Below are positions 22,650 through 47,856 of a DNA stretch of 64,000 bases, piece by piece. A program made the translations under genes and the position numbers. The DNA is from Patescibacteria group bacterium (lineage in GTDB: Bacteria > Patescibacteriota > JABMPQ01 > JAQVVF01). How positions within the stretch are numbered: the first letter of the stretch is position 1; every line of letters starts with the position of its first letter. Location of the stretch: assembly GCA_041662665.1 (NCBI GenBank), contig JBAZSC010000003.1, positions 4,603 to 68,602 of the forward strand, in the 5' to 3' direction. The notes beneath the pieces were generated by a model that saw nothing but the letters and a program-made list of their open reading frames with translations, ran no database searches and had not been told where the DNA came from.

Positions 22650-22717
22650 TTGTGGATAATATTTTATTCTAGACATGGTATACTTAGGTTATCTAAAGAT
22701 AGGATAATAAAACAAAA
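22650..22717 (+). promoter_or_regulatory. Conserved upstream region shared with the paralogous surface-protein gene at 45442
   Basis: ttttgtggataatattttattctagacatggtatacttaggttatctaaa is about 90% identical to 45372-45422; contains a TATACT -10-like hexamer. Confidence 0.55.
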
Positions 22718-25708
22718 ATGTTTTCGAAACGAGCAGGAAAAAATCAAGATCGAATTCTTGAAAAAGTAGGTTTTTTTAGTATTTCAAAATGCAAGATTCT
22801 TTTGAGTCTTTTTTTTGTTTTGGGAGTTTGTTTGTTTATGACGGTAAGGGTAAATGCCGCTTCGACTACATATTATGTTGATGCAACAGGTGGATTAGAT
22901 ACAAATAATGGGACTTCAGTTAGTACACCATGGAAGACAATAACTAAAGTAAATACTTCAATGGATTCTGCCACAATAAAAGCTGGTGATTTTGTTTATT
23001 TTAAACGAGGCGAAACTTTTACAGGATATTTAGATGTTGATGTTACTGGGACTGCTGGAAATATTTTGACTTTTGGCGCTTATGGAGATGGAAATAAGCC
23101 AATTATTAATGCAACTGGTAATAATCGTGCTATTGATGCAAGAACCAATATGTCTTATATAACTTACCAAGATTTAACTGTACAGAATGGAACCACCGAT
23201 CAATTTTTTATCTATGATAGTGCTACAAATATTACTATCAATAATGTAACTATTTCTGGCGGAGCTACAGGTATAAATATTATTACTGGTACTTTTGCTG
23301 ATATCTCTATTACTTCTACTGAAATATCGAATTATACCGGAACAGGAATAGCATTATATAGTGTAACTGGCGGCGGAACAAATATTACCATTGATGGAGT
23401 AACTGAAAATTCAGGTACTGGAACAAGAGGAATCTACATTAGCGCAGGAACATGGAATGGCATTGACATCCTAAATTCAGTATTCAGCAACCATAGTGCA
23501 CAAGGCATACAAACCGCATCATCAGTTGTAAATGATCTGACGATAACTGATGTTACTGCTTCAAGTAATAACGGATATGGTGTGTACTTGGGAGGGAGTG
23601 GTTCAAATTATGATATACATGGTTTGACTGCCAACTCCAATGGCTCTACTGCAGACTATGACGGATTATATCTAAATACTTCATCCAGTTCTTTAAGTAA
23701 TATTACTATTGAAGAAAGCGAATTTAACAGCAATGATGGAAATGGATTAGCATTCGCCAGTACCGGAAGCACTAGCTCCGTTTTATCTACAAACGCTTCA
23801 AGCAATGATGGTGATGGATTTAATATTCATAATGCTTGGACTGATTTAACATTTAATAATTGTATTGCAAATTCTAATGGCCTAGTCGGCCAGTCAGGCG
23901 CAGGCGATGGTTTTTCTTTTCACGAAACAAGTACTGGTACTATTAGAAATAGTATTGCTCAAGATAATATGAAATCATCAGTTGCAAATGTAGGAAGTGC
24001 TCAGGTTGTAATGTATAATAATCTTTTTTCTCATACAACTAATGGTACTCTTGCTCTTGTTTATTTGTCAGAAACAGGAACATATTCGCTATATAATAAT
24101 ACTATTTATAGTGCAGGGCATATAGGGTCTGGTCTGAACGTTGTTGGACCGACTCTAGATGTAAAAAATAACATAATTTATGGTTTCGATATTGGGTTTC
24201 AGAAAACTTCTGGTACTATTACTGAGGATTATAACGATGTATATGGCGCAACTACAGCCAATTTCAGTGGTCTTACTCCAGGCACTCATTCTCTTCAGCT
24301 TGATCCAAAATTAAATAATCCGCCAACTGATTTTTCTCTTCAGTCAGATTCTCCTGCAATTGATTCTGCCTACGATACAAGTATCACCACAGATTATGCC
24401 GGCAAGCAAAGATACGATGATCCAGACGTAGCAAACACCGGAGCAGGAGCAGTACCATATTATGATATGGGAGCTTATGAATATGTTCTTCCACCAGATC
24501 CAATATTTACATCATCATCTCATCCATCGCAATCATCTTGGTATTCAAATACAACAGTCAATATGTCATTGTCATCTAATGGATCTTCAACTACTAATTA
24601 CTATTATCTTGTCAATCAAAATGCAACACCAACTAAAGCAGAAGTCTTAGCTGGTACATTTGATGCTGACGGTATTTTTACAGTAACAATTTCATCTGAT
24701 GGTCAATGGTATATTCATACCATAGCTGTTAATTTAGATAATGATCCGTCAACAAACTACAGCAGCTATTTAGTCCAAATTGACACAGTACCTCCATCAA
24801 TTCCAGGTACTCCTTCAACATCTTCGTTAACAAACAACAACAAGCCAGAATGGACATGGACAGCATCAACAGATGCAACTTCAGGACTAGGTGATCCAGC
24901 TTACAATGTACAATGGTGTGATAATTCAAGCTTTATTGGTTGTGATTTAAATATCTCAACTTCAACAACAAATTCTTTTACTCATTCAATTGCTTTGGCT
25001 GATGGCACTTGGTATTTCAGAGTTCAAGCTATTGATAAAGCTGGAAATACTTCTGATTGGTCAGCTTCAGGTACTGATACAATTTTGACAGTTATTCCTT
25101 TTAACGAAAAAATTAATCTTAAAGATGCAGTTTTAAATCAAACCTATCAAAGCCAACAAAACAATGTAGATCTTCTTTTTTATCTTCTGCCAAAACAGAA
25201 AACAATCAAAGATTTATACATCAAATTAATTAGAAACAAGAAAAAACATCTAAATGGTTTCACAAAGAAAAACAGCTATCCAGGATATCTCAAGCTATTA
25301 TCAAACATCGGCACAGTCAAAAAAGCCTATCAGAAAAATGTTAACAAACATATTAATTTCAGAGTTTCAGTAAGATATTCAAAAACAAAATTAAACAAGA
25401 CGAATATTAAAGAAAAGAATCTAAGACTATTTATTAAAGATCGAGATGGAATATGGCGAGGGCCATACCGAATTTATCAAAACAAAACAACTCATACTCT
25501 AAAATTTAAGATTAGAAACTATTTAGTTAGACAGCCGAAAAACCCAATTCCAAATCCTTTAGATGTTAAGACTAAAAACAGACCATTTGCTCCAACATTT
25601 TACTTTAGAACATTAAAAAAGATTAAATTCGTAATTGCTGAGAAGAATGCCTTATCTAATTTAACTAATTTGGAAACATCGGATAGCCAAGATTTCTTTT
25701 TTGAATAA
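22718..25708 (+). CDS. Large secreted surface protein: leader, right-handed parallel beta-helix region, Ig/Fn3-like region, conserved basic C-terminal domain (~200 aa)
   Basis: 996 aa with a hydrophobic leader FFSISKCKILLSLFFVLGVCLF. Repeated N..T/G-rich beta-helix rungs (pectate-lyase-like). C-terminal 200 aa about 95% identical to the C-terminus of the 45442 gene. Confidence 0.8.
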   Translation: MFSKRAGKNQDRILEKVGFFSISKCKILLSLFFVLGVCLFMTVRVNAASTTYYVDATGGLDTNNGTSVSTPWKTITKVNTSMDSATIKAGDFVYFKRGETFTGYLDVDVTGTAGNILTFGAYGDGNKPIINATGNNRAIDARTNMSYITYQDLTVQNGTTDQFFIYDSATNITINNVTISGGATGINIITGTFADISITSTEISNYTGTGIALYSVTGGGTNITIDGVTENSGTGTRGIYISAGTWNGIDILNSVFSNHSAQGIQTASSVVNDLTITDVTASSNNGYGVYLGGSGSNYDIHGLTANSNGSTADYDGLYLNTSSSSLSNITIEESEFNSNDGNGLAFASTGSTSSVLSTNASSNDGDGFNIHNAWTDLTFNNCIANSNGLVGQSGAGDGFSFHETSTGTIRNSIAQDNMKSSVANVGSAQVVMYNNLFSHTTNGTLALVYLSETGTYSLYNNTIYSAGHIGSGLNVVGPTLDVKNNIIYGFDIGFQKTSGTITEDYNDVYGATTANFSGLTPGTHSLQLDPKLNNPPTDFSLQSDSPAIDSAYDTSITTDYAGKQRYDDPDVANTGAGAVPYYDMGAYEYVLPPDPIFTSSSHPSQSSWYSNTTVNMSLSSNGSSTTNYYYLVNQNATPTKAEVLAGTFDADGIFTVTISSDGQWYIHTIAVNLDNDPSTNYSSYLVQIDTVPPSIPGTPSTSSLTNNNKPEWTWTASTDATSGLGDPAYNVQWCDNSSFIGCDLNISTSTTNSFTHSIALADGTWYFRVQAIDKAGNTSDWSASGTDTILTVIPFNEKINLKDAVLNQTYQSQQNNVDLLFYLLPKQKTIKDLYIKLIRNKKKHLNGFTKKNSYPGYLKLLSNIGTVKKAYQKNVNKHINFRVSVRYSKTKLNKTNIKEKNLRLFIKDRDGIWRGPYRIYQNKTTHTLKFKIRNYLVRQPKNPIPNPLDVKTKNRPFAPTFYFRTLKKIKFVIAEKNALSNLTNLETSDSQDFFFE

Positions 25709-25728
25709 TAATTATATTAACAAAGCCC

Positions 25729-25768
25729 CTCTTGTATTTATTTGGGGCTTTTTGTTTTTTTGATAAAA
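25729..25768 (+). terminator. Rho-independent terminator
   Basis: aaagcccctcttgtatttatttggggcttttt plus a T run. Confidence 0.6.
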
Positions 25769-25886
25769 GTTTGTTATAATATGGCGTAGAAGCGGATTAA
25801 ACGCTGATACTAACGCTGATTCGAACGCTGAAATGAGAATTTGAGATGTAGATCTTTAATTGTTGATAATTTTTATATTTTTTTTA

Positions 25887-26624
25887 ATGATCATGAAACT
25901 TTCAGTAGTAATTCCGGCATACAATGAAGAAAAAAGAATAACAAAAACTTTAGAATCAGTTAATGAATATCTGACAAAACAGGATTTTGATTATGAGATT
26001 TTAGTTGTTGCTAATAATTGTACAGATAATACTGATAAAGTTGTTTTGGATTTGAAAAATAAAATCAAAAATTTAGAATTAATGGATATAGGCGCTGGAA
26101 TACCTGGGAAAGGTGGAGCAGTAAAAGTTGGTTTTTTGAAGGCACAAGGCGAGTACATTATGTTTATGGATGCGGATAATGCAACAAAAATTAATGAATT
26201 AGATCATTTTTGGAATTATTTTGATGAAGGTTATGATATTGTAATTGGTTCGCGTGATACTAAAGGATCAAAAGTTGTTGTTTCTCAAGCTTGGTACAAA
26301 GAATTAGCTGGAAAAATAGGTAATTTATTAATTCAAATTGTGGCCTTACCTGGAATTCATGATACTCAATGTGGATTTAAAATTTTTAAACAAAAAGTTG
26401 TAAAAGACGTTTTTCCAATACAAAAATTAGGTGGATGGGGATTTGATATTGAAATTTTAGCTTTAGCAAAGAAATTTGGTTATAAAATAAAAGAAGAACC
26501 TATTACTTGGTTTAATGCTGTTGGTAGTAAAGTAAGTATGGGTGATTATCTACATGTTTTTTCTGATTTATTTAAAGTTAGGTGGTGGTTGTGGACTGGA
26601 GTTTATAAAGTTAAAAAGTTATAA
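25887..26624 (+). CDS. Family 2 glycosyltransferase, polyprenyl-phosphate sugar synthase-like (DPM1/GtrB/ArnC type)
   Basis: VVIPAYNEE N-terminus, DAD motif (FMDADN), and QCGFK near the C-terminus, as in GT2 Dpm1-like enzymes. Confidence 0.85.
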   Translation: MIMKLSVVIPAYNEEKRITKTLESVNEYLTKQDFDYEILVVANNCTDNTDKVVLDLKNKIKNLELMDIGAGIPGKGGAVKVGFLKAQGEYIMFMDADNATKINELDHFWNYFDEGYDIVIGSRDTKGSKVVVSQAWYKELAGKIGNLLIQIVALPGIHDTQCGFKIFKQKVVKDVFPIQKLGGWGFDIEILALAKKFGYKIKEEPITWFNAVGSKVSMGDYLHVFSDLFKVRWWLWTGVYKVKKL

Positions 26625-26642
26625 AGTTCATAAAGTATTGCT

Positions 26643-27107
26643 ATGTTTCAAAGTTTTTCGCTGATGATTAAGGCGATTCTTATATCAATAGTTGGTGATA
26701 TTAAGATCGTTGTTCCTTTTTTTGCAGCACAAGGACAAATAGCTTGGTGGCAAGTATTATTCGCTTCTGTACTTGGTAATTCTATTTCTGCGATATTTTT
26801 GTTGACATTATTAGTTTTGCTGTCTGATTTTTTGAGACGTAAATTTTCTTTTTGGGATAAATTCTTTACAAACCTTTTTGAAAAAACAAAATTAAAACAT
26901 AAGAAAAATTTTGAAAAATGGGGCGTGTTAGCAGTTCTTTTAGCTGCAGCAATTCCTTTGCCTGGTTTTGGTGGATGGACTGCTGCTATTGTTTCATTTG
27001 TTTTTGGAATTAAATTTAAAAAAGCGGTATTGTTTATTATTTTAGGAATATTTTTGGAAGCTGTTATTATGACTCTTTTGAGTTTTGGGATTAAGAATAT
27101 ATTCTAG
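26643..27107 (+). CDS. Small 4-TM membrane protein, possibly of the small multidrug export-like (COG2426) family
   Basis: IPLPGFGGWTAAIVSFVFGIKFKKA resembles the P.PGTG.WTG motif of that family. Adjacent to the GT2 gene. Confidence 0.4.
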   Translation: MFQSFSLMIKAILISIVGDIKIVVPFFAAQGQIAWWQVLFASVLGNSISAIFLLTLLVLLSDFLRRKFSFWDKFFTNLFEKTKLKHKKNFEKWGVLAVLLAAAIPLPGFGGWTAAIVSFVFGIKFKKAVLFIILGIFLEAVIMTLLSFGIKNIF

Positions 27108-27225
27108 GTTTTGTGTGTTTAGATGTTTGTTAAGTTTAATTAGATTTTATTGTTTTAATAAGTTTTAACGCGGAAAAACGCAGAACTTAACGCGGAAAAT
27201 GCGGAATCGTAATAAATAATAATAT

Positions 27226-27987
27226 ATGCGAAATAAATTAATAGTTGGTAATTGGAAAATGAATTTGACTTTGGAGGAAGCTCGAAGGCTGACTTTGGAT
27301 ATTCGTCAAGGATTAACAAATTTGAGCGAAAAAGTTGAAGTTGCAGTTTGTCCATCATTTGTTCATTTAGCTAACGTTCATTATCAATTGCCATCAAGTA
27401 TAAAATTAGGATCGCAAAATGTTTTTTGGAAAAGTAATGGAGCATATACTGGCGAGATTTCTTGCGATCAACTTTTAGATTTGGGTTGTTCATATGTTAT
27501 TGTTGGTCATTCTGAAAGAAGAAAAAATTTAAGAGAAACTGATGATATGGTTAATGACAAAGTTTTAGAATGCATGCAAAAAGGATTAAAACCAATTATT
27601 TGTGTTGGTGAAACAAATGACGAAAAAGAAAAAAATATGACAGAAGAAAAAGTGACTCAACAAGTTGAATTAGCATTAGAAGGTGTGAAAAGCAAAGATG
27701 TTATAAATATTACAATTGCATATGAACCGATTTGGGCGATTGGTAATTCTAATCCAGCAGAGCCATCTGATGCACAAGCTGTAATTTCAAGAATAAGAGA
27801 TATCTTGAAAAATAATTATTCAGAAAAAGAATCAGAAATGATAAAAATTTTGTATGGAGGAAGTGTGAATCCACAAAATATTGCATCTTTTGTTTTGGAA
27901 AAAGATATTGATGGTGCTTTGGTTGGAGGAGCAAGTATCAAAGCAAATGAATTTGTGGGTATAGTCAAGCAAGTTTTAAAAATATAA
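27226..27987 (+). CDS. tpiA: Triosephosphate isomerase
   Basis: LIVGNWKMN, HSERR, AYEPIWAIG, GGSV motifs. Confidence 0.94.
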   Translation: MRNKLIVGNWKMNLTLEEARRLTLDIRQGLTNLSEKVEVAVCPSFVHLANVHYQLPSSIKLGSQNVFWKSNGAYTGEISCDQLLDLGCSYVIVGHSERRKNLRETDDMVNDKVLECMQKGLKPIICVGETNDEKEKNMTEEKVTQQVELALEGVKSKDVINITIAYEPIWAIGNSNPAEPSDAQAVISRIRDILKNNYSEKESEMIKILYGGSVNPQNIASFVLEKDIDGALVGGASIKANEFVGIVKQVLKI

Positions 27988-27998
27988 TAACTAATAAC

Positions 27999-28108
27999 CA
28001 AATCCCAAATTCCAAACAAATCCCAAATTACAAATTACAAAAATGACGATAGCTTGTAATTTGTGTTTTGTGGATTGTAATTTGTTTGGAATTTGGAGTT
28101 TGTAATTT
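27999..28108. repeat. Palindromic intergenic element, family B (caaatcccaaattccaaacaaat...acaaattacaaa / ttgtaatttgt...tttggaatttgg)
   Basis: Long imperfect inverted repeat between tpiA and fba. Copies at 38306-38428 and 59791-59900. Confidence 0.65.
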
Positions 28109-28110
28109 TT

Positions 28111-28950
28111 ATGTTAATTTCATCTCAGATCTTATTAAAAAAAGCCCAACAAGAGCATTATGCTGTTGGTGCTTTTAATACTTCAGATTTAGAAATTACA
28201 AAAGGAATTGTGAGCGCTTCTGAAGAGATGAATTCGCCAATTATTTTACAAACTTCTGAGGGAGAAATTGTGCATTCTGGCAAAGATATTTTTTTTAATG
28301 CAATGAAAATTTTTGCAGAAAAATCTAAAACTCCAATTAATTTAAATTTAGATCATGGAAAAAGTTTTGAAATGTGCAAATGGGCAGTTGATATTGGCTA
28401 TAATTCTGTAATGATTGATGGTTCAAAATTATCTTTAGACGAAAATATTAAATTAACAAAACAAGTAGTCGATTATGCTCATGAAAGAAGCGTTGTTGTT
28501 GAAGGCGAAATTGGTCTTGTGCCAACACCTGATAAAGGCGAAGAAGTAAAAATCTTAAAAGCTGATCCAAATGAATGTAAAAAATTTGTTGAAGAAACTG
28601 GTTTGGATTTTTTGGCTGTTGGGATTGGCAACGTGCATGGTGAGAACAAAGGAAAGCCAATTTTGGATTTTGAAAGATTAAGTGAAATTTGTAAAGTTGT
28701 TAGTATTCCTTTGGTTTTACATGGTGGTTCAGGAATTTCTGATTTGGATATTAAAAAAGCAATAAGTATGGGAATTTGTAAAATTAATGTTAATACTGAA
28801 CTCCGGCAAGCATTTGTAAAATCTTTGCGTGAATCTTTGGAAGATGAGGACGTGATCAAGCCTTATGATATTATGGAGCCAGTGGAAGATGTGATCAAAA
28901 AGGTTGTTGAGAAGAAGATCGAGATTTTTGGATCTAAAAATAAGATATAA
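28111..28950 (+). CDS. fba: Class II fructose-bisphosphate aldolase
   Basis: LLKKAQQEHYAVGAFN..., LDHG, VEGEIG, LHGGSG class II aldolase motifs. Confidence 0.88.
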   Translation: MLISSQILLKKAQQEHYAVGAFNTSDLEITKGIVSASEEMNSPIILQTSEGEIVHSGKDIFFNAMKIFAEKSKTPINLNLDHGKSFEMCKWAVDIGYNSVMIDGSKLSLDENIKLTKQVVDYAHERSVVVEGEIGLVPTPDKGEEVKILKADPNECKKFVEETGLDFLAVGIGNVHGENKGKPILDFERLSEICKVVSIPLVLHGGSGISDLDIKKAISMGICKINVNTELRQAFVKSLRESLEDEDVIKPYDIMEPVEDVIKKVVEKKIEIFGSKNKI

Positions 28951-28971
28951 AATTGCTCAAATAAAGTTAGT

Positions 28972-29976
28972 ATGTCTAAAACAAAATTTTTAGAATTAAT
29001 CAATTTTTTACAAAAAAACCATAAAGTTTATGGGCCTGTTTTGGATCTGGCAAGCAGATTATTAGTTCGCGAAATAAAAAATCCAGAAGATTTGGTTTTG
29101 AATGGCAGATTGACGCATTATTCTTTTAAAAATTTCTTTTTACCAGCTTGTGAATCTTTGTTTGATTATGATCATCAAAAATTAAAAGAGACAAATTATA
29201 GTTATAAAAAACAAGCAATTGTTGGAATGACAATATCTGATTTAAAAGCATTAGAATTGTATGATCAGGTTTTTGCTAAAGATCCATATTATCAAGAAAG
29301 AAGAAGACAGACTCTGGTGATTGGATATGGTTTGGCGGGCGAAAAAAGTTATTCAGAAGAATTAATTTATGAACAAAAATTTGAGGAAGATATATTAGAA
29401 CATGTTAAATTTGATGTCTTTCTCGAATTAGAATCTAATACGACTAATAAAATCTCTAATGACTTTTGTCACGTTTTTGCTGGATCTGTTGAAGGACAGA
29501 AAGTTTTGGATGGTTTTGGATATAAAGATTATAAAAATATAAAATATGTTGGGCCTATTAAGGAGAACGGTTTAGATAAGACAATGGTCGCTGTTTTTAA
29601 CAAGATGAAAAAGGGTTATGCAAAAAAGATTTGGGAAGATATTGGAAAAAGATGTATAGAATGCGGACAATGCACTTTGGTTTGTCCGACTTGCTATTGT
29701 TTCAGAATTGATGACGAACCAAGTTTAGATAAAGGTAAAGGTAAAAGAATAAGATGTTGGGATGCATGCATGTATCATGAATTTTCAGAAATTTCTGGTA
29801 AGACTAGATTATTGAAAAATACTGAACAGAGAATGTGGTTTTGGTTTTATCATAAATTTGTGAGAATCCCATTCAAATATAAAATACCAGGATGCGTGAA
29901 ATGTGGGCGATGTTCAAGAGTTTGTCCGGTCGATATTGATTTTATGAAGGTTTTGCAGGATGTATTAAAGAGTTAA
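28972..29976 (+). CDS. [NiFe] hydrogenase group 3b-type (sulfhydrogenase-like) beta subunit, 4Fe-4S dicluster protein
   Basis: Two ferredoxin-type motifs CIECGQCTLVCP and CVKCGRCSRVCP. Sits upstream of the FAD/NAD and small/large subunit genes. Confidence 0.7.
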   Translation: MSKTKFLELINFLQKNHKVYGPVLDLASRLLVREIKNPEDLVLNGRLTHYSFKNFFLPACESLFDYDHQKLKETNYSYKKQAIVGMTISDLKALELYDQVFAKDPYYQERRRQTLVIGYGLAGEKSYSEELIYEQKFEEDILEHVKFDVFLELESNTTNKISNDFCHVFAGSVEGQKVLDGFGYKDYKNIKYVGPIKENGLDKTMVAVFNKMKKGYAKKIWEDIGKRCIECGQCTLVCPTCYCFRIDDEPSLDKGKGKRIRCWDACMYHEFSEISGKTRLLKNTEQRMWFWFYHKFVRIPFKYKIPGCVKCGRCSRVCPVDIDFMKVLQDVLKS

Positions 29977-30076
29977 TCGTTGATTTATAAAATGCTTGTA
30001 ACCACAAAGGCACAGAAAATTTTAAGACACAAAAAATGTTAAATTTATTTAGTGTCTTCGTAGATTTTGTGTTTTA

Positions 30077-31999: not shown

Positions 32000-32794
32000 A
32001 TGGAACAACAAAAATTAAAAGTAGCGATGGTTTCTTTAACTTCCTGTGAAGGATGCTATTTTAGTTTGCTTGATTTGGGAAATGAATTTTTGGAAATCGC
32101 AGATAAAATTGATTTAGTTAAATTTAGATTACTTAAGGAAGACCCGCCTTCGCTCCTAGCGAATTCGGAGCTTCGGCGGGCAAAGGAAAAATATGATATA
32201 ACTTTTGTTGAAGGAAGTCCGATTTCAGAAGATAATTTTGATAAATTAATTGATTTAAGATTAAGGACGAAAAAAATGATAGTTTTGGGAGGATGTGCTC
32301 ATACTGGTGGAACGTATGCAATGCGAAATCATACAGACAAGAAAAAAGCCTGCAAATATGTTTATCCAAAAACGAATAAAAAAATTTTTAATCCTAATAT
32401 TTTAGAATTATCAAAAGTTGTACATATCGATGGGATTATTCCAACTTGTCCAGTTAATCCAAGAGAATTCGTAAGATTTATGTCTTTTGTTTTGAATAGT
32501 TTGACTTTTAAAATTACTGAGAGGCCAGTTTGTTATGAATGTCAGTTAGCGCAAACTTCTTGTTTATTAAAAATGGGATTGCCATGTTTTGGACCAATGG
32601 CTTTGGGTGGTTGCGATGCTCCTTGTCCTAGAGCAGGTATGCCATGCCAATTATGTCGTGGGCCAATGAAAGAAATACAATGGGATAATTTTGAAAAGAA
32701 AATGAAAGATATTATGGGAGCAAAAGTTTGGGAAAAAGATTATAATGAAATATTGGAAATTTTTAATGTTAAAGACAAGATAAGTGTTGAATAA
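32000..32794 (+). CDS. [NiFe] hydrogenase small (delta) subunit
   Basis: VAMVSLTSCEGCYFSLLD N-terminal proximal-cluster motif, plus C-terminal Cys motifs (CPVNP, CYEC, CDAPC, CQLC). Carries an in-frame GC-rich repeat insertion at 32143-32186. Confidence 0.82.
   Translation: MEQQKLKVAMVSLTSCEGCYFSLLDLGNEFLEIADKIDLVKFRLLKEDPPSLLANSELRRAKEKYDITFVEGSPISEDNFDKLIDLRLRTKKMIVLGGCAHTGGTYAMRNHTDKKKACKYVYPKTNKKIFNPNILELSKVVHIDGIIPTCPVNPREFVRFMSFVLNSLTFKITERPVCYECQLAQTSCLLKMGLPCFGPMALGGCDAPCPRAGMPCQLCRGPMKEIQWDNFEKKMKDIMGAKVWEKDYNEILEIFNVKDKISVE
32143..32186. repeat. GC-rich hairpin repeat, copy c, inserted in-frame within the hydrogenase small-subunit CDS
   Basis: cccgccttcgctcctagcgaattcggagcttcggcgggcaaagg, encoding DPPSLLANSELRRAKE. 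Same family as the 1571, 57534 and 62075 copies. Confidence 0.65.
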
Positions 32795-32903
32795 GTTAGA
32801 CTAGTTAGATTAGTTAGATTTGTTTCGGAAATTATGATATTCGGAAATTAACTACCCAACTTTTAGTTGGGGTTCGTCAAACTTTAGTTTGAAGTCGTAG
32901 ATA

Positions 32904-35807: not shown

Positions 35808-37025
35808 ATGAACAAAAAAACGATCAAAGATATTGATGTTAAAAATAAAATTGTTTTAGTGAGGGATGATTTTAATGTGCCAATTAAGGATAGAAAAATT
35901 TTGGATGATTTTAAGATTAGAAAAAGTCTTGATACGATTAATTATTTGATTAAACAAAATGCAAAAATTGTTTTAATGTCACATTTAGGAAAACCGAAAG
36001 GAAAGATAGTTGAGAATTTACGATTAAAACCGGTTGCTGAATGTCTAGCTGCAATGATGAATAAGAGAATTGTAACCACAAAAACACAAAAAACTGGTGA
36101 AGACTCAAAAAATGGTGTGATTTATTATTGTGATGATTGCATAGGCAATATTGTAAAGAAAACTATTAATGATGCAGATTTTGGCGATATTATTTTGTTG
36201 GAGAATGTTAGATTTTATCCAGAAGAAGAAAAAAATGATGTAGAATTTGCTAAAAAACTGGCGAGTTTAGGTGAGATATTTTGCGAAGATGGATTCGGAT
36301 CAGTACATCGGGGCCACGCCTCTGTTTCAGGAATTGCTAAATTTTTACCCGCTGTTGCTGGATTATTGCTGGAAAGAGAAGTCGATGTTTTGACAGAAGT
36401 TTTAGAAAAACCAGAACATCCATATCTAGTTATTTTAGGCGGAGCAAAAATTTCAACAAAATTAAATTTGATAAATAAATTAGCTAAACAAGCAGACAAG
36501 CTGTTGGTTGCTGGTGCTTTATCAAATACTATTTTTATGGCGAATGGCTTAAATGTTGGCGGTTCTCTTGTTGAAAAAGAAATGATTGATCAGATTAAAA
36601 CAACTGTTTTGAAAAATAATAATATTGATATACCAATTGATGTTGTAGTTGGAAAAGAAAATGGTGATAATGCGAGAATTGTTGATGTTGGAAATGGTAT
36701 AAGTAATGATGAATTTATTTATGATATTGGTCCAAAGACTATTGAATTGTTTAAAAGAAAAATTGATAAATCTAGTTTGGTTGTTTGGAATGGACCAATG
36801 GGAAAATTTGAAAATGAAAGATACGCAAAAGGAACATTTGAATTAGCAAAAGAATTAGTGAAGGTTAAAAAAGCTGTTGTTGGTGGAGGCGAGACTTCAA
36901 TGGCAATCAGAGAGTTAGGATTAGAAGATAAAATTTATCATTTATCAACTGGAGGTGGTGCTATGTTGGAATTTTTGGAAGGAAAAGAGATGCCAGGAAT
37001 AGAATGCTTGCAAGTTAAAAGTTAA
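35808..37025 (+). CDS. pgk: Phosphoglycerate kinase
   Basis: 405 aa PGK pattern (VLVRDDFNVP, ...GGGA...). Confidence 0.92.
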   Translation: MNKKTIKDIDVKNKIVLVRDDFNVPIKDRKILDDFKIRKSLDTINYLIKQNAKIVLMSHLGKPKGKIVENLRLKPVAECLAAMMNKRIVTTKTQKTGEDSKNGVIYYCDDCIGNIVKKTINDADFGDIILLENVRFYPEEEKNDVEFAKKLASLGEIFCEDGFGSVHRGHASVSGIAKFLPAVAGLLLEREVDVLTEVLEKPEHPYLVILGGAKISTKLNLINKLAKQADKLLVAGALSNTIFMANGLNVGGSLVEKEMIDQIKTTVLKNNNIDIPIDVVVGKENGDNARIVDVGNGISNDEFIYDIGPKTIELFKRKIDKSSLVVWNGPMGKFENERYAKGTFELAKELVKVKKAVVGGGETSMAIRELGLEDKIYHLSTGGGAMLEFLEGKEMPGIECLQVKS

Positions 37026-38305: not shown

Positions 38306-38428
38306 AATTACAAATCTCAAATTCCAAACAAAATCCAAATTACAAATTACAAAGTCGACGGTTTGTTTTTTGTGTTTTGTATATTGTAATTTGTTTGGGA
38401 TTTGGAATTTGTGATTTGGGATTTAATG
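38306..38428. repeat. Palindromic intergenic element, family B, between eno and gpmI
   Basis: caaatctcaaattccaaacaaaatccaaattacaaattacaaa ... ttgtaatttgtttgggatttggaatttgtgatttggg. Confidence 0.65.
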
Positions 38429-40736: not shown

Positions 40737-40744
40737 TTTCTACC

Positions 40745-40845
40745 CAGCTTTAGCTGGGGTATGTGCAACTTTAGTTGCAGTAGAAGTTTGATGAAAAAAT
40801 AAAGTTTTTCGAACCACAACTAAAGTTGGGTAGATGCTTAATAAA
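40745..40845. repeat. Tandem hairpin element (acccagctttagctggggt, gcaactttagttgc, caactaaagttggg)
   Basis: Hairpins built around a CTTTAG core. Related pair at 32838-32900 (acccaacttttagttggggt, caaactttagtttg). Confidence 0.5.
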
Positions 40846-40850
40846 TTTTT

Positions 40851-41549
40851 ATGCACGAACAAATTGGCGAAATAAGTCAAAAAGATATTATGGAATCAGG
40901 TGTTGAAAAAACTCCAGGTTTAGAAATTGCAAAAACCGAAGAATCAGAAGAAGCTGTAAAATTGTTAGACGAAATTGCAGGAGATATTGAGAATGATCTA
41001 AATATAAAAGCTGAAAGAATGATAATGCTTAGAGAAGCTTTGGGAAAATTGCGATTTAATTTTGGAGCGGAAGGCGAGACAATGACAGCTGAAGAATTAA
41101 AAAAAGTTCCTGATATGAAAGAAAATGTTGAGATTTATGAAGCTATGAAACGAGATTTTCATCTTGGTCGGGCAACACGAATTGATGAAGTTACTTATCT
41201 TACTCCAGGAATGGCAGAAGAAATAATCTTTGTTTATGATCCTGATGAAACTATGTCATTAATGAGTTTAAAAGTAATGACTGATAAACTAGCTGAAGTT
41301 TTGGGTAATGCAGAAGAAGTTAACATAAGGTTACCAAAATTAAATATTTTAACTGGAAAACAGTTGCGAAGTCTTTTGGCAAAAACTAATACTGTTAGTT
41401 TGCGGGGTTTGGATACCGTGCAGGTTGATGGAGATTTAGCGATAACTATAGACCAATGTGCTGGAAGAATTGTTATGGATGACAAGCAAATTGATAGGTT
41501 AAAAGAACTTTTTCCGAAGTTCGAATTTCGTAGAATTATGGGGCATTAA
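40851..41549 (+). CDS. Unknown-family protein, paralog 1 of a tandem pair
   Basis: 232 aa. Shared N-terminal motif (EISQKDIMESGxEKTPGLExAKT) and C-terminus (ELFPxxxFRxxMGH) with the gene at 41612. Confidence 0.6.
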   Translation: MHEQIGEISQKDIMESGVEKTPGLEIAKTEESEEAVKLLDEIAGDIENDLNIKAERMIMLREALGKLRFNFGAEGETMTAEELKKVPDMKENVEIYEAMKRDFHLGRATRIDEVTYLTPGMAEEIIFVYDPDETMSLMSLKVMTDKLAEVLGNAEEVNIRLPKLNILTGKQLRSLLAKTNTVSLRGLDTVQVDGDLAITIDQCAGRIVMDDKQIDRLKELFPKFEFRRIMGH

Positions 41550-41611
41550 TTAATAGACTGAAATTATATAACCTTTAGGTTAAAGCCAAGTAGAAATATT
41601 AAACATTTTTT

Positions 41612-42310
41612 ATGAAAGAACAATTTGGTGAAATAAGTCAAAAAGATATTATGGAATCAGGTGCTGAAAAGACACCTGGTTTAGAATTGGCAAAAACAAA
41701 AGAATTGGATGAAGTTGCAAGTCGAGCTGATGAAATTGCTGATGATTTAAAAAATGATCGAAATATAAAAGCTGAACAATTGATTGGATTAGAAGTGGCT
41801 TTGGGAAAATTGAAGGTTAATTTTGGCGCTGAAGGTGAGACTATGACAGTTGAAGAATTAAAAAAAGTTCCTGATGCAAAAGAAAATGCTAGACTTTATA
41901 GGATAATTGAAAATGCAGTTAAAGAAGGAAAGGCAATTGGGATGGAAGAAGTTACTTATCTTACTCCTGGTATAGCTAGAAAGTTAGTATCTGTTTTAGC
42001 GCCATATCAGATTGCGGATTTGTTAAATCTTAAAGTAATGACTGATGGAGTAGCTGAAGTTTTAGGTAAAGCAGAAAAAGTAAGTATAAGTTCAGCAGCA
42101 TTGGAAAAAATAACATGGAGACAATTGAATGCTTTGTTTGCAAAAACTAATACTGTTCATATGTGGGGTTTAGAAGTGGATAAAAATGATAGGAAATTAG
42201 CTAGAATTATTAATTTACATTCAGAACGAATGGTTATGAATGGTAGTCAAATTGATAAATTACATGAATTATTTCCAGATTTAAATTTTCGCGGACTTAT
42301 GGGCCATTAA
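41612..42310 (+). CDS. Unknown-family protein, paralog 2 of a tandem pair
   Basis: 232 aa, about 50% identical to 40851..41549 along the full length. Confidence 0.6.
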   Translation: MKEQFGEISQKDIMESGAEKTPGLELAKTKELDEVASRADEIADDLKNDRNIKAEQLIGLEVALGKLKVNFGAEGETMTVEELKKVPDAKENARLYRIIENAVKEGKAIGMEEVTYLTPGIARKLVSVLAPYQIADLLNLKVMTDGVAEVLGKAEKVSISSAALEKITWRQLNALFAKTNTVHMWGLEVDKNDRKLARIINLHSERMVMNGSQIDKLHELFPDLNFRGLMGH

Positions 42311-42323
42311 TTAAAGTTTTATT

Positions 42324-43400
42324 ATGCAAAAATATATACTAGTTATAAATTCAGGTTCAACTTCTTTAAAATACAAATTATTTTTAGAGACTGATTTAAA
42401 GATGATTAGATCTGGATATATTGAACACATTGGTGAAAGTGAAATTAAAGATCATGAGCAAGCTTTTGGAATAGTTTTGGAAGAAATCAAAGATTATAAA
42501 AATGATATTGTAAAAATTGGACATCGAGTTGTGCATGGAGGAACTAAGTTTGTAGAGCCAACAAAGATTGATGAAAACGTTTTGAAAGAATTAGAAGAAG
42601 TAAGTAAATTAGCGCCATTACATAATCCAGCAAATTTAATGGGAATTAAGGCATCTATGAAATTATTGCCAAATGTTTTAAATGTTGCTGTTTTCGATAC
42701 TGCTTTTCATCAAAGTATTCCAGAAAAAGCGTGGAGATATGCGATTGATGATAAATATTTTAAACAATATGGAGTGAGGCGATATGGATTTCATGGGATA
42801 TCACATGAATATGTTTGTGGACAAGTTAAAAGTCAAAAGTCTAAAGTCAAAAGTAACAATTCAAAATTAAAAATAATCTCCTGCCATCTTGGTGGTGGAT
42901 GTTCGGTTTGTGCTATTTCTGATGGCAAATCTGTTGATACTTCGATGGGATTTACGCCACTTGAGGGATTGGTGATGATGAGCAGATGTGGTGATATTGA
43001 TCCAGCAATAGTGACATATTTGCAGAAAAAAGAAAATTTAAGCGTTGATCAAATTGAAGAAATTTTGAATTTTAAATCTGGAATTTTTGCATTATGTGGT
43101 GAGACAAATTGGTTGAAAGTTTTGGAACGTGTTAAAGTTAATGATAGATTAGCAAAAATGGCTTTTGATATTTTTGTTTATAGAATAAAAAAATATATTG
43201 GTAGTTATTACGCAATTTTAGGCGGACTTGATGTTTTGGTTTTTACTGGATCAATTGGATCTGGAGATGCTTTAACTCGAGAGGCTGTTTGTGACGGTTT
43301 GCCATTTTTGGAAAATGTTGAAGTGACGGCGATTAAGACGGATGAGGAAATGATGATCTCTAGGAAAATTCTAAGCACTAAATTCGTTAAAAGCTTCTAA
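42324..43400 (+). CDS. ackA: Acetate kinase
   Basis: ILVINSGSTSLKYKLF N-terminus, HLGGG, and ASKHD-family fold. Small Lys/Ser-rich insertion (SQKSKVKSNNSKLK). Confidence 0.88.
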   Translation: MQKYILVINSGSTSLKYKLFLETDLKMIRSGYIEHIGESEIKDHEQAFGIVLEEIKDYKNDIVKIGHRVVHGGTKFVEPTKIDENVLKELEEVSKLAPLHNPANLMGIKASMKLLPNVLNVAVFDTAFHQSIPEKAWRYAIDDKYFKQYGVRRYGFHGISHEYVCGQVKSQKSKVKSNNSKLKIISCHLGGGCSVCAISDGKSVDTSMGFTPLEGLVMMSRCGDIDPAIVTYLQKKENLSVDQIEEILNFKSGIFALCGETNWLKVLERVKVNDRLAKMAFDIFVYRIKKYIGSYYAILGGLDVLVFTGSIGSGDALTREAVCDGLPFLENVEVTAIKTDEEMMISRKILSTKFVKSF

Positions 43401-43450
43401 GGTCGCTTTTAACTTCTAAGCAAATTCAAAGAACAAAAATATAAATATAC

Positions 43451-43550
43451 GAAGAGGCTCAGCCTTTTATTTAAATTGTTGGTTTGTGTTTTTAATAAAG
43501 TTGATTTTAAATGTAATTGCTTAGTTTTTTTAATAAAAGGCTGAGCCTCT
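43451..43550. repeat. Long-range inverted repeat directly upstream of recJ
   Basis: aagaggctcagccttttatttaaa ... ttaataaaaggctgagcctctt (about 19-bp stem, about 55-nt loop). Confidence 0.5.
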
Positions 43551-43557
43551 TAAGATT

Positions 43558-45293
43558 ATGCAAAGACTTTGGCAGGTAAAACAAAAAATAAGTGAAGATT
43601 TTATTAATAAATTTCCAGAATTTGATTCTGTGATTTTGCAATTGTTATTTAATAGAGGAATTGATAATCAGAAAAAGATTGATGAATTTTTTAATCCAGA
43701 TTATTCAAAAAATTTATTTGATCCATTTTTATTGAAAGATATGGATCGAGCGGTTGAAAGAATTTTTAAGGCATTAAAGAATAAAGAAAGAGTTGGAATT
43801 TTTGGTGACTATGATGCTGATGGCGTAACATCATCTGTTTTATTAACAGAATTATTTAAAAAAATTGGTTTGGCTGGGCAAGTTTATATTCCTGATCGAG
43901 TCTCTGAAGGCTATGGAATGAATAAGAAAGCAATTGATTGGCTAGCAAAAAAAGATATTAAATTGATTGTCAGTTGTGATTGTGGTGTTTCAAACAAGGA
44001 AGAAATTGATTATGCAAAAGAAAAATATGGAATTGATTGCGTAATTACTGATCACCATCATGTTCCTATAGATTTTGATAAAAAATATATTGTTGTTGAC
44101 TCAAAAAGAAAGGGTGATAAATATCCATATAAAGAGTTGGCGGGTGTTGGCGTTGTTTTTAAGCTGGCTCAGGCATTGATCACTCGAATTAATTTTCGAA
44201 TAAAAGCGAATGAATTTTCGAATGTTAAACTTGAAAATGGTTGGGAAAAGAGTTTGCTTGATTTAGTGACGATTGGCACGATTGCGGATTGTTCGCCGAT
44301 TATTTCGGAGAATAGAACATTGGTGAAATATGGATTAAATATTATAAAAGAGACTGAAAGAATTGGTTTGCAAAGTTTGATGCAAGTAGCTTGCGTTGAT
44401 CCAAAATTAATTAATAGCGACAGAATCGGTTTTGCAATTGCGCCAAGAATTAATTCAGCTGGCAGAATGGATCATGCTTCGGCATCGTATAAACTTTTGA
44501 TTACAGAAGATTTGGAAAAAGCAGTTTGGTTGTCTAAAAAAATCGATAAGACAAATTCAAGCCGGCAATCTTTGACAAGTAAATTAGTTGATGAGGCAAA
44601 AAAGAAAATTGGCGATGTCAAAGATCAAAAAGTATTAATGGCATCTGGTGGAAATGGCCTTTGGGCGTTGTAGGTATTGTGGCTGGCAGGATTTGTGAAG
44701 AATATAATCGGCCAACTTTGATTTGTGGTAAGGGCTTGATTGAATCTGTTGGATCAGCTAGAAGTATTCCTGCTTTTGATATTATTGACGCTATTTCTTC
44801 TTGTAAAAATTTGTTATTAGAATATGGCGGACATAAACAAGCAGCTGGCTTTTCTTTGAAAAATGAAAATTTTGAAAAATTTCATAAAAAATTAGAAAAA
44901 ATTGCAACAGAAAAAATAGATGAAAAAGATTTACAGCCAGTAATTGAAATTGACAGCGAAGTTGATTTTAAAGATGTGAATTGGAATTTGTATGAAAGAT
45001 TATTAGATTTTGAACCTCATGGAATTGGAAATCGAAAGCCGGTTTTTTTGGCAAAAGATATTCAAGTTATTAATGCTTATCCTGTTGGCAAAACAAAAAA
45101 GCATTTAAAAATGAAAATTAAGTCTAATTCCGATAGTCGGATTTTTGATGTGATTGGTTTTAATCATGGACATAGAGTAGAGGAGTTAAATAAAAAAGGT
45201 AAAATGGATATTGTTTTTAATTTGGATTGTAATGAATGGAATGGAGAAAAGATTTTGCAGTTGAGACTTGTTGATTTTAGGATTTCACTCTAA
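43558..45293 (+). pseudogene. recJ: Single-stranded-DNA exonuclease RecJ, split into two ORFs (43558..44673 and 44661..45293) by a frameshift near 44650-44662
   Basis: N-terminal ORF carries DHH motifs (GDYDADGVTS, ITDHHH). C-terminal ORF carries DHHA1 (GGHKQAAGF). The canonical ...WxPGVVGIVAGRI junction appears as WKWPLGVVGIVAGRI in the shifted frame. Could be a real pseudogene, a sequencing error or a slippage site. Confidence 0.7.
44181..44230. repeat. TCGAAT-rich repeat inserted in-frame within recJ
   Basis: cactcgaattaattttcgaataaaagcgaatgaattttcgaatg encodes ITRINFRIKANEFSN. Its 22-nt core aattttcgaataaaagcgaat recurs at 45296 just after the recJ stop. Confidence 0.65.
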
Positions 45294-45295
45294 TA

Positions 45296-45360
45296 AATTT
45301 TCGAATAAAAGCGAATTCATTAAAAAATTTCTATTCAAAATTTTTTAATTCGAATGATGT
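45296..45360. repeat. TCGAAT-rich repeat, intergenic copy
   Basis: aattttcgaataaaagcgaattcattaaaaaatttc...aattcgaatg. Confidence 0.6.
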
Positions 45361-45371
45361 TCCGATAACTT

Positions 45372-45441
45372 TTTGTGGATAATATTTTATTCTAGATATG
45401 GTATACTTAGATTATCTAAAATTGGTATAATTAAAACAAAT
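45372..45441 (+). promoter_or_regulatory. Conserved upstream region shared with the surface-protein gene at 22718
   Basis: ttttgtggataatattttattctagatatggtatacttagattatctaaa, about 90% identical to 22650-22700. Confidence 0.55.
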
Positions 45442-47856
45442 ATGTATTTTTTTAATACAAAAATAAACAAAAAAGTACGAGGGGGGGGGCTTAATGGAAA
45501 GGTAAAATTTTTTAGTATTTCAAAATACAAGATTCTTTTGAGTCTTTTTTTTGTTTTGGGGGTTTGTTTTTGTTTTGGTAAAATAACGTTTGCTTATCCA
45601 CCCTATACACCAAATTCTGATTTAGTTGTTGTGGGTCCTTATGATACTGCACCAACAAGTGGAGTAAAAAATATAGGTGATGGAGTAGGCGATGGAGTTG
45701 CTAAACGTTATTGGTTAAACGGCGGTCAAAAATACAGAATTCGGCAGAATGGAACCATTAGTAAAGCTAAGGTCTGGGTACCAAACTCTAATGGAACATT
45801 TACTTTTTTTCAAATTCAAATATGGAGACCAAATGGAACAAATTTTGATTTAGTAGGAGAATCGGAAAATTTTTATTCTTCAATTACAAAAAATCAAGTT
45901 AATGAGATCACTTTATCTTCTCCTATCTCCAATGTTCAAGAAGGAGATTATTATGGAATTGTAATTTCGATGAATGGTGATACTGGGTCAATGTATGCAA
46001 GAAGTGGTTTGACCGGAGTCAATCTATACTATACTTCGACGACGCCTAGTGATACTAATTATAATTGGTTGGCAAATTCTAAACTATCAGGATATGCTAT
46101 TCCACTAGAATTATATATGCAAGCGCCACAGGGTGTTTTTATCGGTGATTCTATTGTGGCTGGTCATCCTGCTAATTATAGTTTCTTAGAAACTACAGCA
46201 ACAACAGATATTAGTTCTACTATTGAGAAACAATTTAGTAATCTTACAGGATATACTTATCAAAATATGGGTATTGGTTCACAGACAACTTCTAACATAT
46301 CTGCTCGTTTTACCAATGATGCATTAAATTTAAAACCTAGATTTATAGTAGTTGAAGGAGGAGTAAATGATTTAGCTGGAAGTGTAGATAAGTCTGTTTT
46401 TATTGCAAATTGGACGAGCATGTTGGATGCGGTACAAGCAGATGATGATATAACAACAATAATAATTTTGAAAATCTTACCTTGGACAGATGGAACAAAT
46501 ATTCAAATGCAAACTAGAGATGATTGGAACGCATCATTAGTTACTTTGTCATCAGGATATTCAAAGGCTATAGTTGTTGATGCGAGTACTTATGTGGGGC
46601 AGTTTCGTGCAGGTGGTGATGTTGGAAATCTTTGGGATATACAACTCGCTTATGATGAGTCGGGAGTACATTTTAATCAAGCAGGAAATTCTCAAATAGC
46701 ACAAGCAATTGCCGATGCATTAGATAGTGATGCTCCAGTTACAACTGCTCTTCCATTAGGGGGAATATATAACAGTTTTAAAACAGTAACTTTATCTTGT
46801 GATGATGGTAGCGGACAAGGATGTAATAAAACATATTACACAATTGACGGGACAGATCCAACTACAAGCTCACCTGAATATACTGTTCCTCTAGATATTT
46901 CTTCTAATACTACTTTAAAATTCTTTTCAGTTGATGTTGTTGATAACCAAGAATCAGTAAAAACAGAAGTTTATGTTATTGACACAGAATCACCAGTAAC
47001 AACTGCTACTCCAGCTGGTGGAACATACGATAGCGTTCAAGTAGTTACTTTGACAACAGATGAAGCAGCAACAACATATTACACATTAGATGGCACAGAT
47101 CCAACAATTTTATCGTTAGTCTATTCTTTGCCAATCACAATTTCTGAAACATCAGTTCTTAAATTTTTTTCAGTTGATAATGTTGGAAATTCCGAAAGTG
47201 TAAAAACTGAAGAATATATTATTAATACTGAAGCTCCATTTATTCCTTTCATTGAAAAACTTAATTTAGAAAACGTAATTCTAAATCAAACCTATCAAAG
47301 TCAACAAAACAATGCAGATCTTCTTTTCTATCTTCTTCCTAAACAAAAAGTAATCAAAGATCTATATATTAAATTAATCAGAAACAAGAAGAAACACCTT
47401 AATGGTTTTACAAAAAAGAATAGTTATCCAGGTTATTTAAAACTATTATCAAATATTGGTACAGTAAAAAAAGCTTATCAAAAAAATGTTAATAAGCATA
47501 TTAATTTTAGAGTCTCTGTTAGATATTCTAAAACAAAATTAAACAAGACTAACATCAAAGAAAAGAATCTAAGATTATTTATTAAAGATCGAGATGGTAT
47601 TTGGCGAGGACCATACAGAATTTATCAAAACAAAACAACTCATACTCTAAAATTTAAGATTAGAAATTATTTAGTTAGACAACCGAAAAATCCTGTTCCA
47701 AATCCACTTGATGTCAAAACAAAAAATAGACCATTTGCGCCATCATTTTACTTTAGAACTTTGAAAAAGATTAAATTCGTAATTGCAGAGAAAAATACAT
47801 TATCTAAATTAACAAATTCTGAAACATCGGATAGCCAAGATTTTGATTTTGAATAA
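45442..47856 (+). CDS. Large secreted surface protein: leader, SGNH/GDSL hydrolase domain, two CHB_HEX_C-like (chitobiase/beta-hexosaminidase C-terminal-like) repeats, conserved basic C-terminal domain
   Basis: Leader FFSISKYKILLSLFFVLGVC matches the 22718 gene. GDSL block VFIGDSIVAG, block III GGVNDL and block V DESGVHFNQAG. Tandem ~80-aa repeats (YYTIDGTDPTTSS... / YYTLDGTDPT...). C-terminal 200 aa about 95% identical to the 22718 protein. G9 tract at 45481-45489. Confidence 0.8.
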   Translation: MYFFNTKINKKVRGGGLNGKVKFFSISKYKILLSLFFVLGVCFCFGKITFAYPPYTPNSDLVVVGPYDTAPTSGVKNIGDGVGDGVAKRYWLNGGQKYRIRQNGTISKAKVWVPNSNGTFTFFQIQIWRPNGTNFDLVGESENFYSSITKNQVNEITLSSPISNVQEGDYYGIVISMNGDTGSMYARSGLTGVNLYYTSTTPSDTNYNWLANSKLSGYAIPLELYMQAPQGVFIGDSIVAGHPANYSFLETTATTDISSTIEKQFSNLTGYTYQNMGIGSQTTSNISARFTNDALNLKPRFIVVEGGVNDLAGSVDKSVFIANWTSMLDAVQADDDITTIIILKILPWTDGTNIQMQTRDDWNASLVTLSSGYSKAIVVDASTYVGQFRAGGDVGNLWDIQLAYDESGVHFNQAGNSQIAQAIADALDSDAPVTTALPLGGIYNSFKTVTLSCDDGSGQGCNKTYYTIDGTDPTTSSPEYTVPLDISSNTTLKFFSVDVVDNQESVKTEVYVIDTESPVTTATPAGGTYDSVQVVTLTTDEAATTYYTLDGTDPTILSLVYSLPITISETSVLKFFSVDNVGNSESVKTEEYIINTEAPFIPFIEKLNLENVILNQTYQSQQNNADLLFYLLPKQKVIKDLYIKLIRNKKKHLNGFTKKNSYPGYLKLLSNIGTVKKAYQKNVNKHINFRVSVRYSKTKLNKTNIKEKNLRLFIKDRDGIWRGPYRIYQNKTTHTLKFKIRNYLVRQPKNPVPNPLDVKTKNRPFAPSFYFRTLKKIKFVIAEKNTLSKLTNSETSDSQDFDFE
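45481..45489 (+). repeat. Homopolymeric G9 tract inside the 5' coding region (codes RGGG)
   Basis: gggggggggc in a roughly 30% GC genome; absent from the paralog at 22718. Confidence 0.9.

Follow-up and report, generated by a model that had tools for sequence, protein, structure and literature searches.

Two genes with shared ends and different centres

We studied two genes for large secreted proteins in a 64,000-nucleotide stretch of DNA from a Patescibacteria group bacterium (GCA_041662665.1, contig JBAZSC010000003.1, positions 4,603 to 68,602 of the forward strand). The whole 64-kb stretch is henceforth referred to as the window, and coordinates count from its first nucleotide unless another locus is named. 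Gene A (22718-25708) encodes 996 amino acids (aa) and gene B (45442-47856) encodes 804 aa counted from its ATG. The original prediction, made from the sequence alone, was that the two proteins have in common an upstream block, a leader and a basic C-terminal domain (henceforth the tail), and that these surround unrelated central parts (henceforth the passengers). The features of the two genes are as follows.

22647..22698, + strand: conserved upstream block of gene A, with TGGTATACT at 22676-22684 (extended -10-like)
22718..22858, + strand: gene A leader, a long N-region, then the hydrophobic core FFSISKCKILLSLFFVLGVCLF, then VNA|AS
22859..25099, + strand: gene A passenger, a right-handed beta-helix, a choice-of-anchor Q segment and an Ig-like region (Big_13)
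25100..25708, + strand: basic domain of 202 aa at the C-terminus of gene A, with the stop codon (2.8e-98 in hmmsearch against the family profile)
45370..45421, + strand: conserved upstream block of gene B, with TGGTATACT at 45399-45407
45442..45594, + strand: gene B leader, MYFFNTKINKKVRGGGLNGKVKFFSISKYKILLSLFFVLGVCFCFGKITFA|YP, from the translation
45481..45489, + strand: G9 homopolymer (codons GGG GGG GGG) inside the gene B leader, between start codon and signal-peptide core
45595..47247, + strand: gene B passenger, an N-terminal domain, an SGNH/GDSL esterase and two CHB_HEX_C/Fn3_assoc repeats
47248..47856, + strand: basic domain of 202 aa at the C-terminus of gene B, with the stop codon (3.1e-97 in hmmsearch against the family profile)

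Pairwise BLASTN of the two genes returned exactly two homologous regions, one of 628 nt at the 3′ end (86% identity) and one of ~200 nt at the 5′ end (80% identity, with indels). The 3′ homology starts at ~25089 in gene A and ~47237 in gene B and stops a few bases past the stop codon. Beyond this point each gene has its own terminator-like hairpin and T-run.

Annotation of the passengers agrees with the prediction that the central parts are unrelated. Gene A matches Pfam Beta_helix (9e-17) and the NCBIfam model choice_anch_Q (29.6 bits, above the cut-off of 25), and its residues 688-782 match Big_13 at 25.6 bits, which is below the 27-bit cut-off. By established usage, choice-of-anchor domains are a class found N-terminal to alternative C-terminal anchors. 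Gene B matches Pfam Lipase_GDSL_2 (8e-17, residues 233-416) and, in two stretches, CHB_HEX_C_1 (7e-36). Both passengers are acidic, with a net charge of -46 and an isoelectric point (pI) of 4.05 in gene A and a net charge of -32 and a pI of 4.17 in gene B.

The tail is strongly basic and under purifying selection

Over 211 ungapped residues of the aligned tails of A and B, 191 aa and 538 of 633 nt are identical. The 95 nt differences are distributed over first, second and third codon positions as 21/9/65. We computed synonymous (dS) and nonsynonymous (dN) divergence by the Nei-Gojobori method (NG86) and obtained a dS of 0.88, a dN of 0.058 and a dN/dS of 0.066 for these 211 codons. The 202-residue domain proper is 93% identical in protein and 85% in DNA, with a dS of 0.92 and a dN/dS of 0.045. 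These values bear out the prediction of a ~200-aa basic domain that is ~95% identical, differs chiefly at third codon positions and is held by purifying selection. Because dS is ~0.9 with a dN/dS of ~0.05, the tail is not a recent copy, and the dN/dS calculation rules out a recent segmental duplication with dS near 0. The same pattern of purifying selection is found in two other genomes: 11 non-identical same-genome pairs from three genomes have a dS of 0.48-1.04 and a dN/dS of 0.045-0.18 (the twelfth pair, L009/L010, is identical and hence outside these ranges).

The tail carries a net charge of +15 to +45 and a pI of 9.75-10.6 in all 20 members examined, including gene A (+30, pI 10.31) and gene B (+29, pI 10.26). 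The median pI of 51 open reading frames (ORFs) of the window is 8.6. Both tails end in a short acidic segment that has no hydrophobic stretch (...ETSDSQDFFFE in A, ...ETSDSQDFDFE in B). The terminal motif (D/N)x(F/I)FE is kept in three subfamilies and is missing in several others.

As predicted, the tail fits no family that can be named. The window domain had no Pfam match at E up to 0.1, and 12 aligned members had no relevant match at E up to 1; their only hits in Pfam-A were five unrelated single-member matches, the best at 0.0025. NCBIfam gave no relevant match for any of the 12 members or for the window tails. In particular, the tail matched neither LysM, SLH, GW, CW_binding_1/2, SH3b or WxL in Pfam nor the models for the type IX secretion system C-terminal domain (T9SS CTD), PEP-CTERM and LPXTG in NCBIfam/TIGRFAM. 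A profile search of the PDB sequences returned two integrase matches only (E 0.36 and 1.7).

A tblastn match at 36723-36893 was discarded as a chance hit to phosphoglycerate kinase. GC skew in the window is usually +0.2 to +0.4, and it drops to -0.07 in the bin 24001-26000 and to +0.04 in the bin 46001-48000, the bins with the tail-coding segments; the drop probably reflects the Lys-, Asn-, Gln- and Thr-rich codons of the tails.

A small, narrowly distributed domain family

The profile search for other proteins ending in this domain, which the original prediction had proposed as a check, was run with HMMER exhaustively over 1.84 billion cluster representatives and found 18 clusters with the tail. 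A word-index search retrieved only two standalone 228-residue proteins (P0001 and P0002) from one Patescibacteria metagenome-assembled genome (MAG). In the 18 clusters the tail either forms the extreme C-terminus of proteins of 589-1317 residues that begin with a signal peptide, or occurs as a standalone protein of 228 residues that has its own signal peptide. Passengers in the family include beta-helix, GDSL, Rax2-like beta-propeller, PSII_BNR-like propeller and FG-GAP repeat domains, as well as 'PHISYYD' repeats that were read from the sequences and have no Pfam match. CHB_HEX_C usually lies directly N-terminal to the tail. The domain thus recurs, always at the C-terminus, is far better conserved than the passengers and is basic opposite acidic passengers.

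Carriers are few. Species-representative genomes with the domain number 4 out of 185,579, so its general importance is limited. These are a Patescibacteria MAG (seven matched loci), two MAGs labelled Saccharibacteria and an unclassified MAG (four matched loci). Metagenomes of the Joint Genome Institute (JGI) added three short loci only. Relatives in unrelated MAGs are 43-75% identical over the domain, and the JAQVVF01 genome alone has four divergent tail subtypes. As far as the sequence comparisons reach, the tail defines a small domain family restricted to Patescibacteria. The family is previously undescribed and very narrowly distributed, and its job is probably a familiar one.

The genome of the window itself contains several members. 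Gene A, gene B and three further proteins (P0004, P0005 and P0006) have accessions of the form MFA6296xxx under the name 'Patescibacteria group bacterium', and this shared series indicates that the window's genome has at least five paralogs. Together with the 18 clusters and the multiple copies in three other MAGs, these paralogs rule out confinement of the similarity to two genes. The five paralogs are mosaics. Gene B, P0004 and P0005 are collinear, with identities of 31-41% in the N domain, 55-69% in GDSL, 64-72% in CHB_HEX_C and 92-93% in the tail. P0006 combines the gene B leader, GDSL, a 590-residue segment resembling gene A (47.5%), a single CHB_HEX_C and the tail, and its N-terminus is 82% identical to that of gene B over 55 residues. 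The FFSISK/KILLSLFF leader and the peptide KVRGGGLNGKVK are each common to four of the five paralogs. The mosaics support constant ends around exchangeable centres, and with them the cassette-like swapping of central domains that had been proposed, of which P0006 is an example.

Tandem copies were seen in other MAGs. Locus L013 (JAUWOX010000022.1) has three domains in 4.7 kb (43-567, 2095-2619 and 4108-4662), L007 has two (114-674 and 2336-2857), and so does L010 (1563-2117 and 6010-6525). Copies per genome therefore exceed the locus count.

One member of the family lies next to a diversity-generating retroelement (DGR). The standalone gene for P0001 on L001 (GCA_028699085.1) is directly downstream of a DGR, within L001 1-2800; the DGR comprises Avd at 107-481, an Asn-rich template repeat (TR) at ~640-835 and a reverse transcriptase (RT) whose end is at 2063. 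Positions 1-11 of L001 match the end of the TR over 11 nt, which suggests that the target gene is off the contig end. On L002 (1-170), the first 127 nt equal L001, and the sequence then continues without Avd, TR or RT straight into P0002; the split has the look of a branch in the assembly graph or of strain variation. In the window, tblastn found no RT and no Avd, and the only long repeats of the region are the A/B pair, with no pair of template and variable repeats. We rejected a DGR explanation for the gene pair: the window is without RT and Avd, the TR is unlike the domain gene, and an RT was found only beside L001 among the loci.

The shared 5′ ends

The upstream block, predicted to be ~50 nt and ~90% identical, is in fact closer still: 49 out of 52 non-coding positions (94%) are identical between A and B, and identity just upstream is 25%. 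Its 38-nt core has two exact sites in the window, against 0 expected from shuffles, and within the window the motif TGGTATACT occurs only at the two upstream blocks. We read the block as a predicted promoter, in which TGGTATACT resembles an extended -10 element.

The common leader segment FFSISK(C/Y) was also recovered. Both genes encode the peptide KV(G/K)FFSISK(C/Y)KILLSLFFVLGVC, and the corresponding 75-nt block (22759-22833 in A, 45495-45569 in B) is 90.7% identical. Between the start codon and this block the two genes are only 35% identical, with indels, and outside the shared 5′ blocks identity drops at once to 25-27%. The VNA|AS of the gene A leader is a likely signal peptidase I site, as read from the sequence.

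We considered and dismissed three other readings of the 5′ region. A structured RNA was dropped, with a folding z of ~-1 and no match in Rfam. A YSIRK-like leader, suggested by a resemblance of FSISKY, was rejected since the YSIRK signal model had no match at E up to 10 (four leaders searched against Pfam and three against NCBIfam). A lipoprotein was rejected by inspection, as the LGVC around the leader Cys is not a canonical lipobox and P0004 is without the Cys.

The leader of gene B also contains the G9 tract. It is the sole run of eight or more G or C in the 64 kb, and runs of G6, G7 or G8 number zero. The peptide RGGGL encoded over it is kept in P0004, P0005 and P0006. A homopolymeric tract within the 5′ coding region is one of the marks of phase-variable loci, and G9 is such a tract; we offer slipped-strand phase variation here as a hypothesis only, with G9 as a candidate.

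Among codons for identical residues, 2 out of 21 differ in the leader and 61 out of 187 in the tail (Fisher p 0.04). The smaller share of synonymous differences in the leader indicates either nucleotide-level constraint on the 5′ end or a more recent homogenisation of it. This share also bears on a further explanation, namely that the shared ends have no common function and arose by segmental duplication or gene conversion between paralogs. The 5′ blocks are closer than neutral divergence predicts and the homology has sharp edges, so some conversion at the 5′ end is possible. For the C-terminal domain a functionless duplication is refuted by the synonymous divergence (dS 0.9 with a dN/dS of 0.045, and likewise in two other genomes), and unrelated MAGs also keep the domain. 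As an account of the shared ends as a whole, this explanation is very improbable.

Predicted fold and the question of autoproteolysis

Structure prediction of the tail, another check that had been proposed, gave a confident beta-sandwich. With an alignment of 12 diverse sequences, AlphaFold2 returned an all-beta sandwich with a predicted local distance difference test (pLDDT) score of 78.7 and a predicted template modelling (pTM) score of 0.78; a run with four sequences reached a pLDDT of 45.6 and was unusable, so the 12-sequence alignment was used instead. In the model, residues 151-161 form a variable loop of low confidence, and the acidic end is floppy. Foldseek searches of the PDB and of the viral models of BFVD gave nothing significant. 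We read the model as a tentative similarity to the ZU5 class at the level of the fold, short of homology.

The motif NR[PTS][FY][AS]P[TA]FYF comes right behind the variable loop, and the long penultimate strand follows it at once. As in ZU5/FIIND/GAIN-GPS domains, an aromatic-small-Pro motif thus directly precedes a long C-terminal strand. About half of the family have Ser at position +1 of the motif, with members reading F-S-P. ZU5 domains are known from large bacterial surface proteins with lipases and glycohydrolases (Zhang et al., PMC3482391), and like these secreted multidomain proteins the tail-bearing proteins pair the domain with lipase-type and glycan-active enzymes. By analogy, the tail could be a ZU5/GAIN/FIIND-like autoproteolytic module that cuts itself at F|S-P and leaves two non-covalently associated fragments.

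Several results speak against such cleavage. Autopeptidases of the ZU5 superfamily carry a Ser, Thr or Cys nucleophile right behind a buried aromatic residue where they cut (HF|S, SF|S, HL|T). Both window genes, like the three other paralogs of their genome, read RPF-A-P, with Ala at +1, and the presumably equivalent change S297A abolishes CARD8 cleavage (PMC3210808); P0012 is without the motif. Cleavage therefore cannot be the conserved function, and the analogy excludes it for the tails of the window genes. Pfam scans of the tail gave no ZU5 match, and Foldseek was blank. The tail also differs from the ZU5 superfamily in its sequence identity of 3-11%, in having Ala at the nucleophile position in the window genes, and in being extremely basic and strictly C-terminal, whereas the ZU5 of bacterial toxins is described as N-terminal (PMC3482391). 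We regard autoproteolysis as a decidedly poor prospect for the family and retain it, at low probability, for the Ser-type members alone. If the fold similarity to ZU5/GAIN should reflect common descent, the tail would add a bacterial extracellular branch to that superfamily.

A possible role in surface retention

Patescibacteria live attached to other microbes. The reading that we favour, at a probability of about 50%, is that the tail is an autonomous, strongly basic beta-sandwich of ~190-200 residues that holds passengers non-covalently on the surface. Each gene would be a single-gene unit with its own promoter, and its product would be exported by the Sec pathway via the shared long leader. 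The acidic passenger (an esterase, a beta-helix enzyme or, in relatives, a beta-propeller) would be held out on Ig-like or CHB_HEX_C spacers. The cationic tail would then bind an anionic envelope polymer non-covalently, most likely at the cell's own wall or membrane surface, so that the passenger stays displayed. Position, charge and architecture are what point to this ligand and to a retention function.

Monoderm bacteria are known to have a class of C-terminal modules that bind the wall non-covalently (review PMC5817068). The tail-bearing proteins resemble those with GW modules (Listeria InlB and Ami), the basic regions of Lactobacillus S-layer proteins, SLH, CWB2 and LysM in their plan of signal peptide, passenger and C-terminal retention module, and in the reuse of the module behind differing passengers within one genome. 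GW modules are familiar for binding lipoteichoic acid. Several modules of this class are basic and bind anionic wall polymers (review PMC5817068). The tail is unlike them in its lack of a sequence match, in being a single ~200-residue module instead of short repeats, in its predicted ZU5-like sandwich, which is neither an SH3-like nor an SLH fold, and in its occurrence in a handful of Patescibacteria genomes only.

A number of points weigh against surface retention. None of the known wall-binding families in Pfam and NCBIfam matches the tail, which leaves no link by homology to a ligand. High lysine is partly a general trait of AT-rich genomes. The standalone secreted proteins P0001 and P0002 are odd for a pure anchor, and the four divergent subtypes in JAQVVF01 fit a single shared ligand poorly.

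The last two points are more easily accommodated by host-surface binding, the main rival to retention on the cell's own surface. The tail would then bind the envelope of the bacterium that carries the epibiont and deliver esterases, lyase-like enzymes and propeller adhesins to it, much like the cell-wall-binding domains of endolysins and bacteriocins. The same evidence from charge and architecture applies; the passengers comprise propellers that resemble adhesins and enzymes that modify polysaccharides or esters; a standalone secreted protein makes more sense as a binder than as an anchor; a single genome has several divergent subtypes; and cultivated Patescibacteria are episymbionts (PMC11623550). 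Host-recognition modules usually diversify, however, and the tails of the five paralogs are ~92% identical or more in the pairs compared. Moreover, this MAG has no known host, and binding to self and binding to a host are computationally indistinguishable. On balance we consider host targeting unlikely, yet ahead of the remaining alternatives.

Could the tail instead be a C-terminal sorting signal that a dedicated machinery for export or attachment recognizes, before the signal is cut off or processed covalently? Its strictly C-terminal position, the choice-of-anchor Q segment upstream and the (D/N)x(F/I)FE end motif kept in three subfamilies are consistent with this, and so is the likeness to T9SS CTD, PEP-CTERM and LPXTG proteins, in which one C-terminal element is found on many unrelated secreted proteins of a genome. 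In other respects the tail is unlike these signals. It lacks a transmembrane or other hydrophobic helix as well as any motif for sortase or exosortase; known signals are far smaller than its 200 residues; no NCBIfam or Pfam sorting model matches it; the terminal motif is missing in several subfamilies; and a standalone copy exists. The genes near A and B are housekeeping genes (RuvX, a family 2 (GT2) glycosyltransferase, TIM, RecJ and RNase H), so no dedicated machinery is nearby, and conserved accessory genes are also missing near the domain. With its large size, its standalone copies and neither a hydrophobic anchor nor accessory genes, the tail is improbable as a cleavable sorting signal.

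The mosaic paralogs, the sharp homology boundaries and the conserved ends also recall polymorphic toxins. The polarity is reversed in comparison with these, since here the C-terminus is constant and the centre variable, and the gene downstream is not immunity-like; a GT2 glycosyltransferase and a small coiled-coil ORF are found instead. A composite picture can be drawn, in which a ZU5/GAIN-like cationic tether, shuffled passengers, self-cleavage at F|SP in the Ser-type members and on/off switching of single paralogs by slippage of the leader poly-G tract would together form a Patescibacteria-specific contingency repertoire with which an epibiont of tiny genome interacts with its host. We mention it as a speculation with little chance of being correct as a whole.

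Whether the tail retains passengers on the cell's own surface or on that of a host, it marks secreted proteins, of which the window's genome encodes at least five and a related MAG at least seven. These are prime candidates for envelope or host-contact functions, and the tail is a compact, well-conserved handle for finding such proteins with hidden Markov models.

A probable distant relative in the window

A third protein of the window, encoded from 62187, had been suggested to end in a distant relative of the tail.

63237..63746, + strand: basic C-terminal region of the beta-propeller protein encoded from 62187, probably related to the tail at a distance

The charge contrast is the same as in A and B: the N-terminal part has a net charge of -20 and a pI of 4.17, and the C-terminal 170 residues have a net charge of +33 and a pI of 10.36. 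This basic region follows a beta-propeller, like the tail of several family members. Comparison with the 12-sequence profile by hhalign gave an E of 0.0015 over 106 columns with a probability of 17%, and hmmsearch among 235 window ORFs placed the protein third after A and B (E 0.0014). The score of 10.0 bits exceeds the maximum of 5.8 in 5000 composition-preserving shuffles. Word-index search found no homologs of the region. Statistical support for the suggestion thus comes from all three comparisons and falls short of conclusive, and we consider a distant relationship to the A/B tail probable from these sequence scores. The next ORF, just downstream in the region 63800-64000, has DGSIYA-type propeller repeats like those of the 62187 protein (copy at 63919-63996) and runs off the window end before its C-terminus.

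Other features of the window

Directly upstream of gene B, RecJ appears to be split into an ORF at 43558-44673 (DHH) and an overlapping one at 44661-45293 (DHHA1 and RecJ_OB); a frameshift, decay to a pseudogene or a mistake in sequencing may account for this. A bacterial RNase P RNA of class A lies at 49055-49617 (137.9 bits); at 563 nt against a model of 367 positions, it has large insertions.

Several repeats were noted. An intergenic repeat family has four sites (27999-28108, 38311-38417, 51187-51299 and 59793-59893), and each copy combines an arm of the CAAATCCCAAATTCCAAAC type with one of the GTTTGGAATTTGG type that looks complementary to it, an arrangement suggestive of long AT-rich hairpins between genes. 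Short tandem repeats of the GTTAGAT type occur at 5475-5550, 32785-32824 and 48899-48947. Two adjacent 232-aa paralogs (40851-41549 and 41612-42310) have DNA blocks that are 83-84% identical at a spacing of 761 nt, and a third, more distant copy is found near 53143 (~53085-54134).

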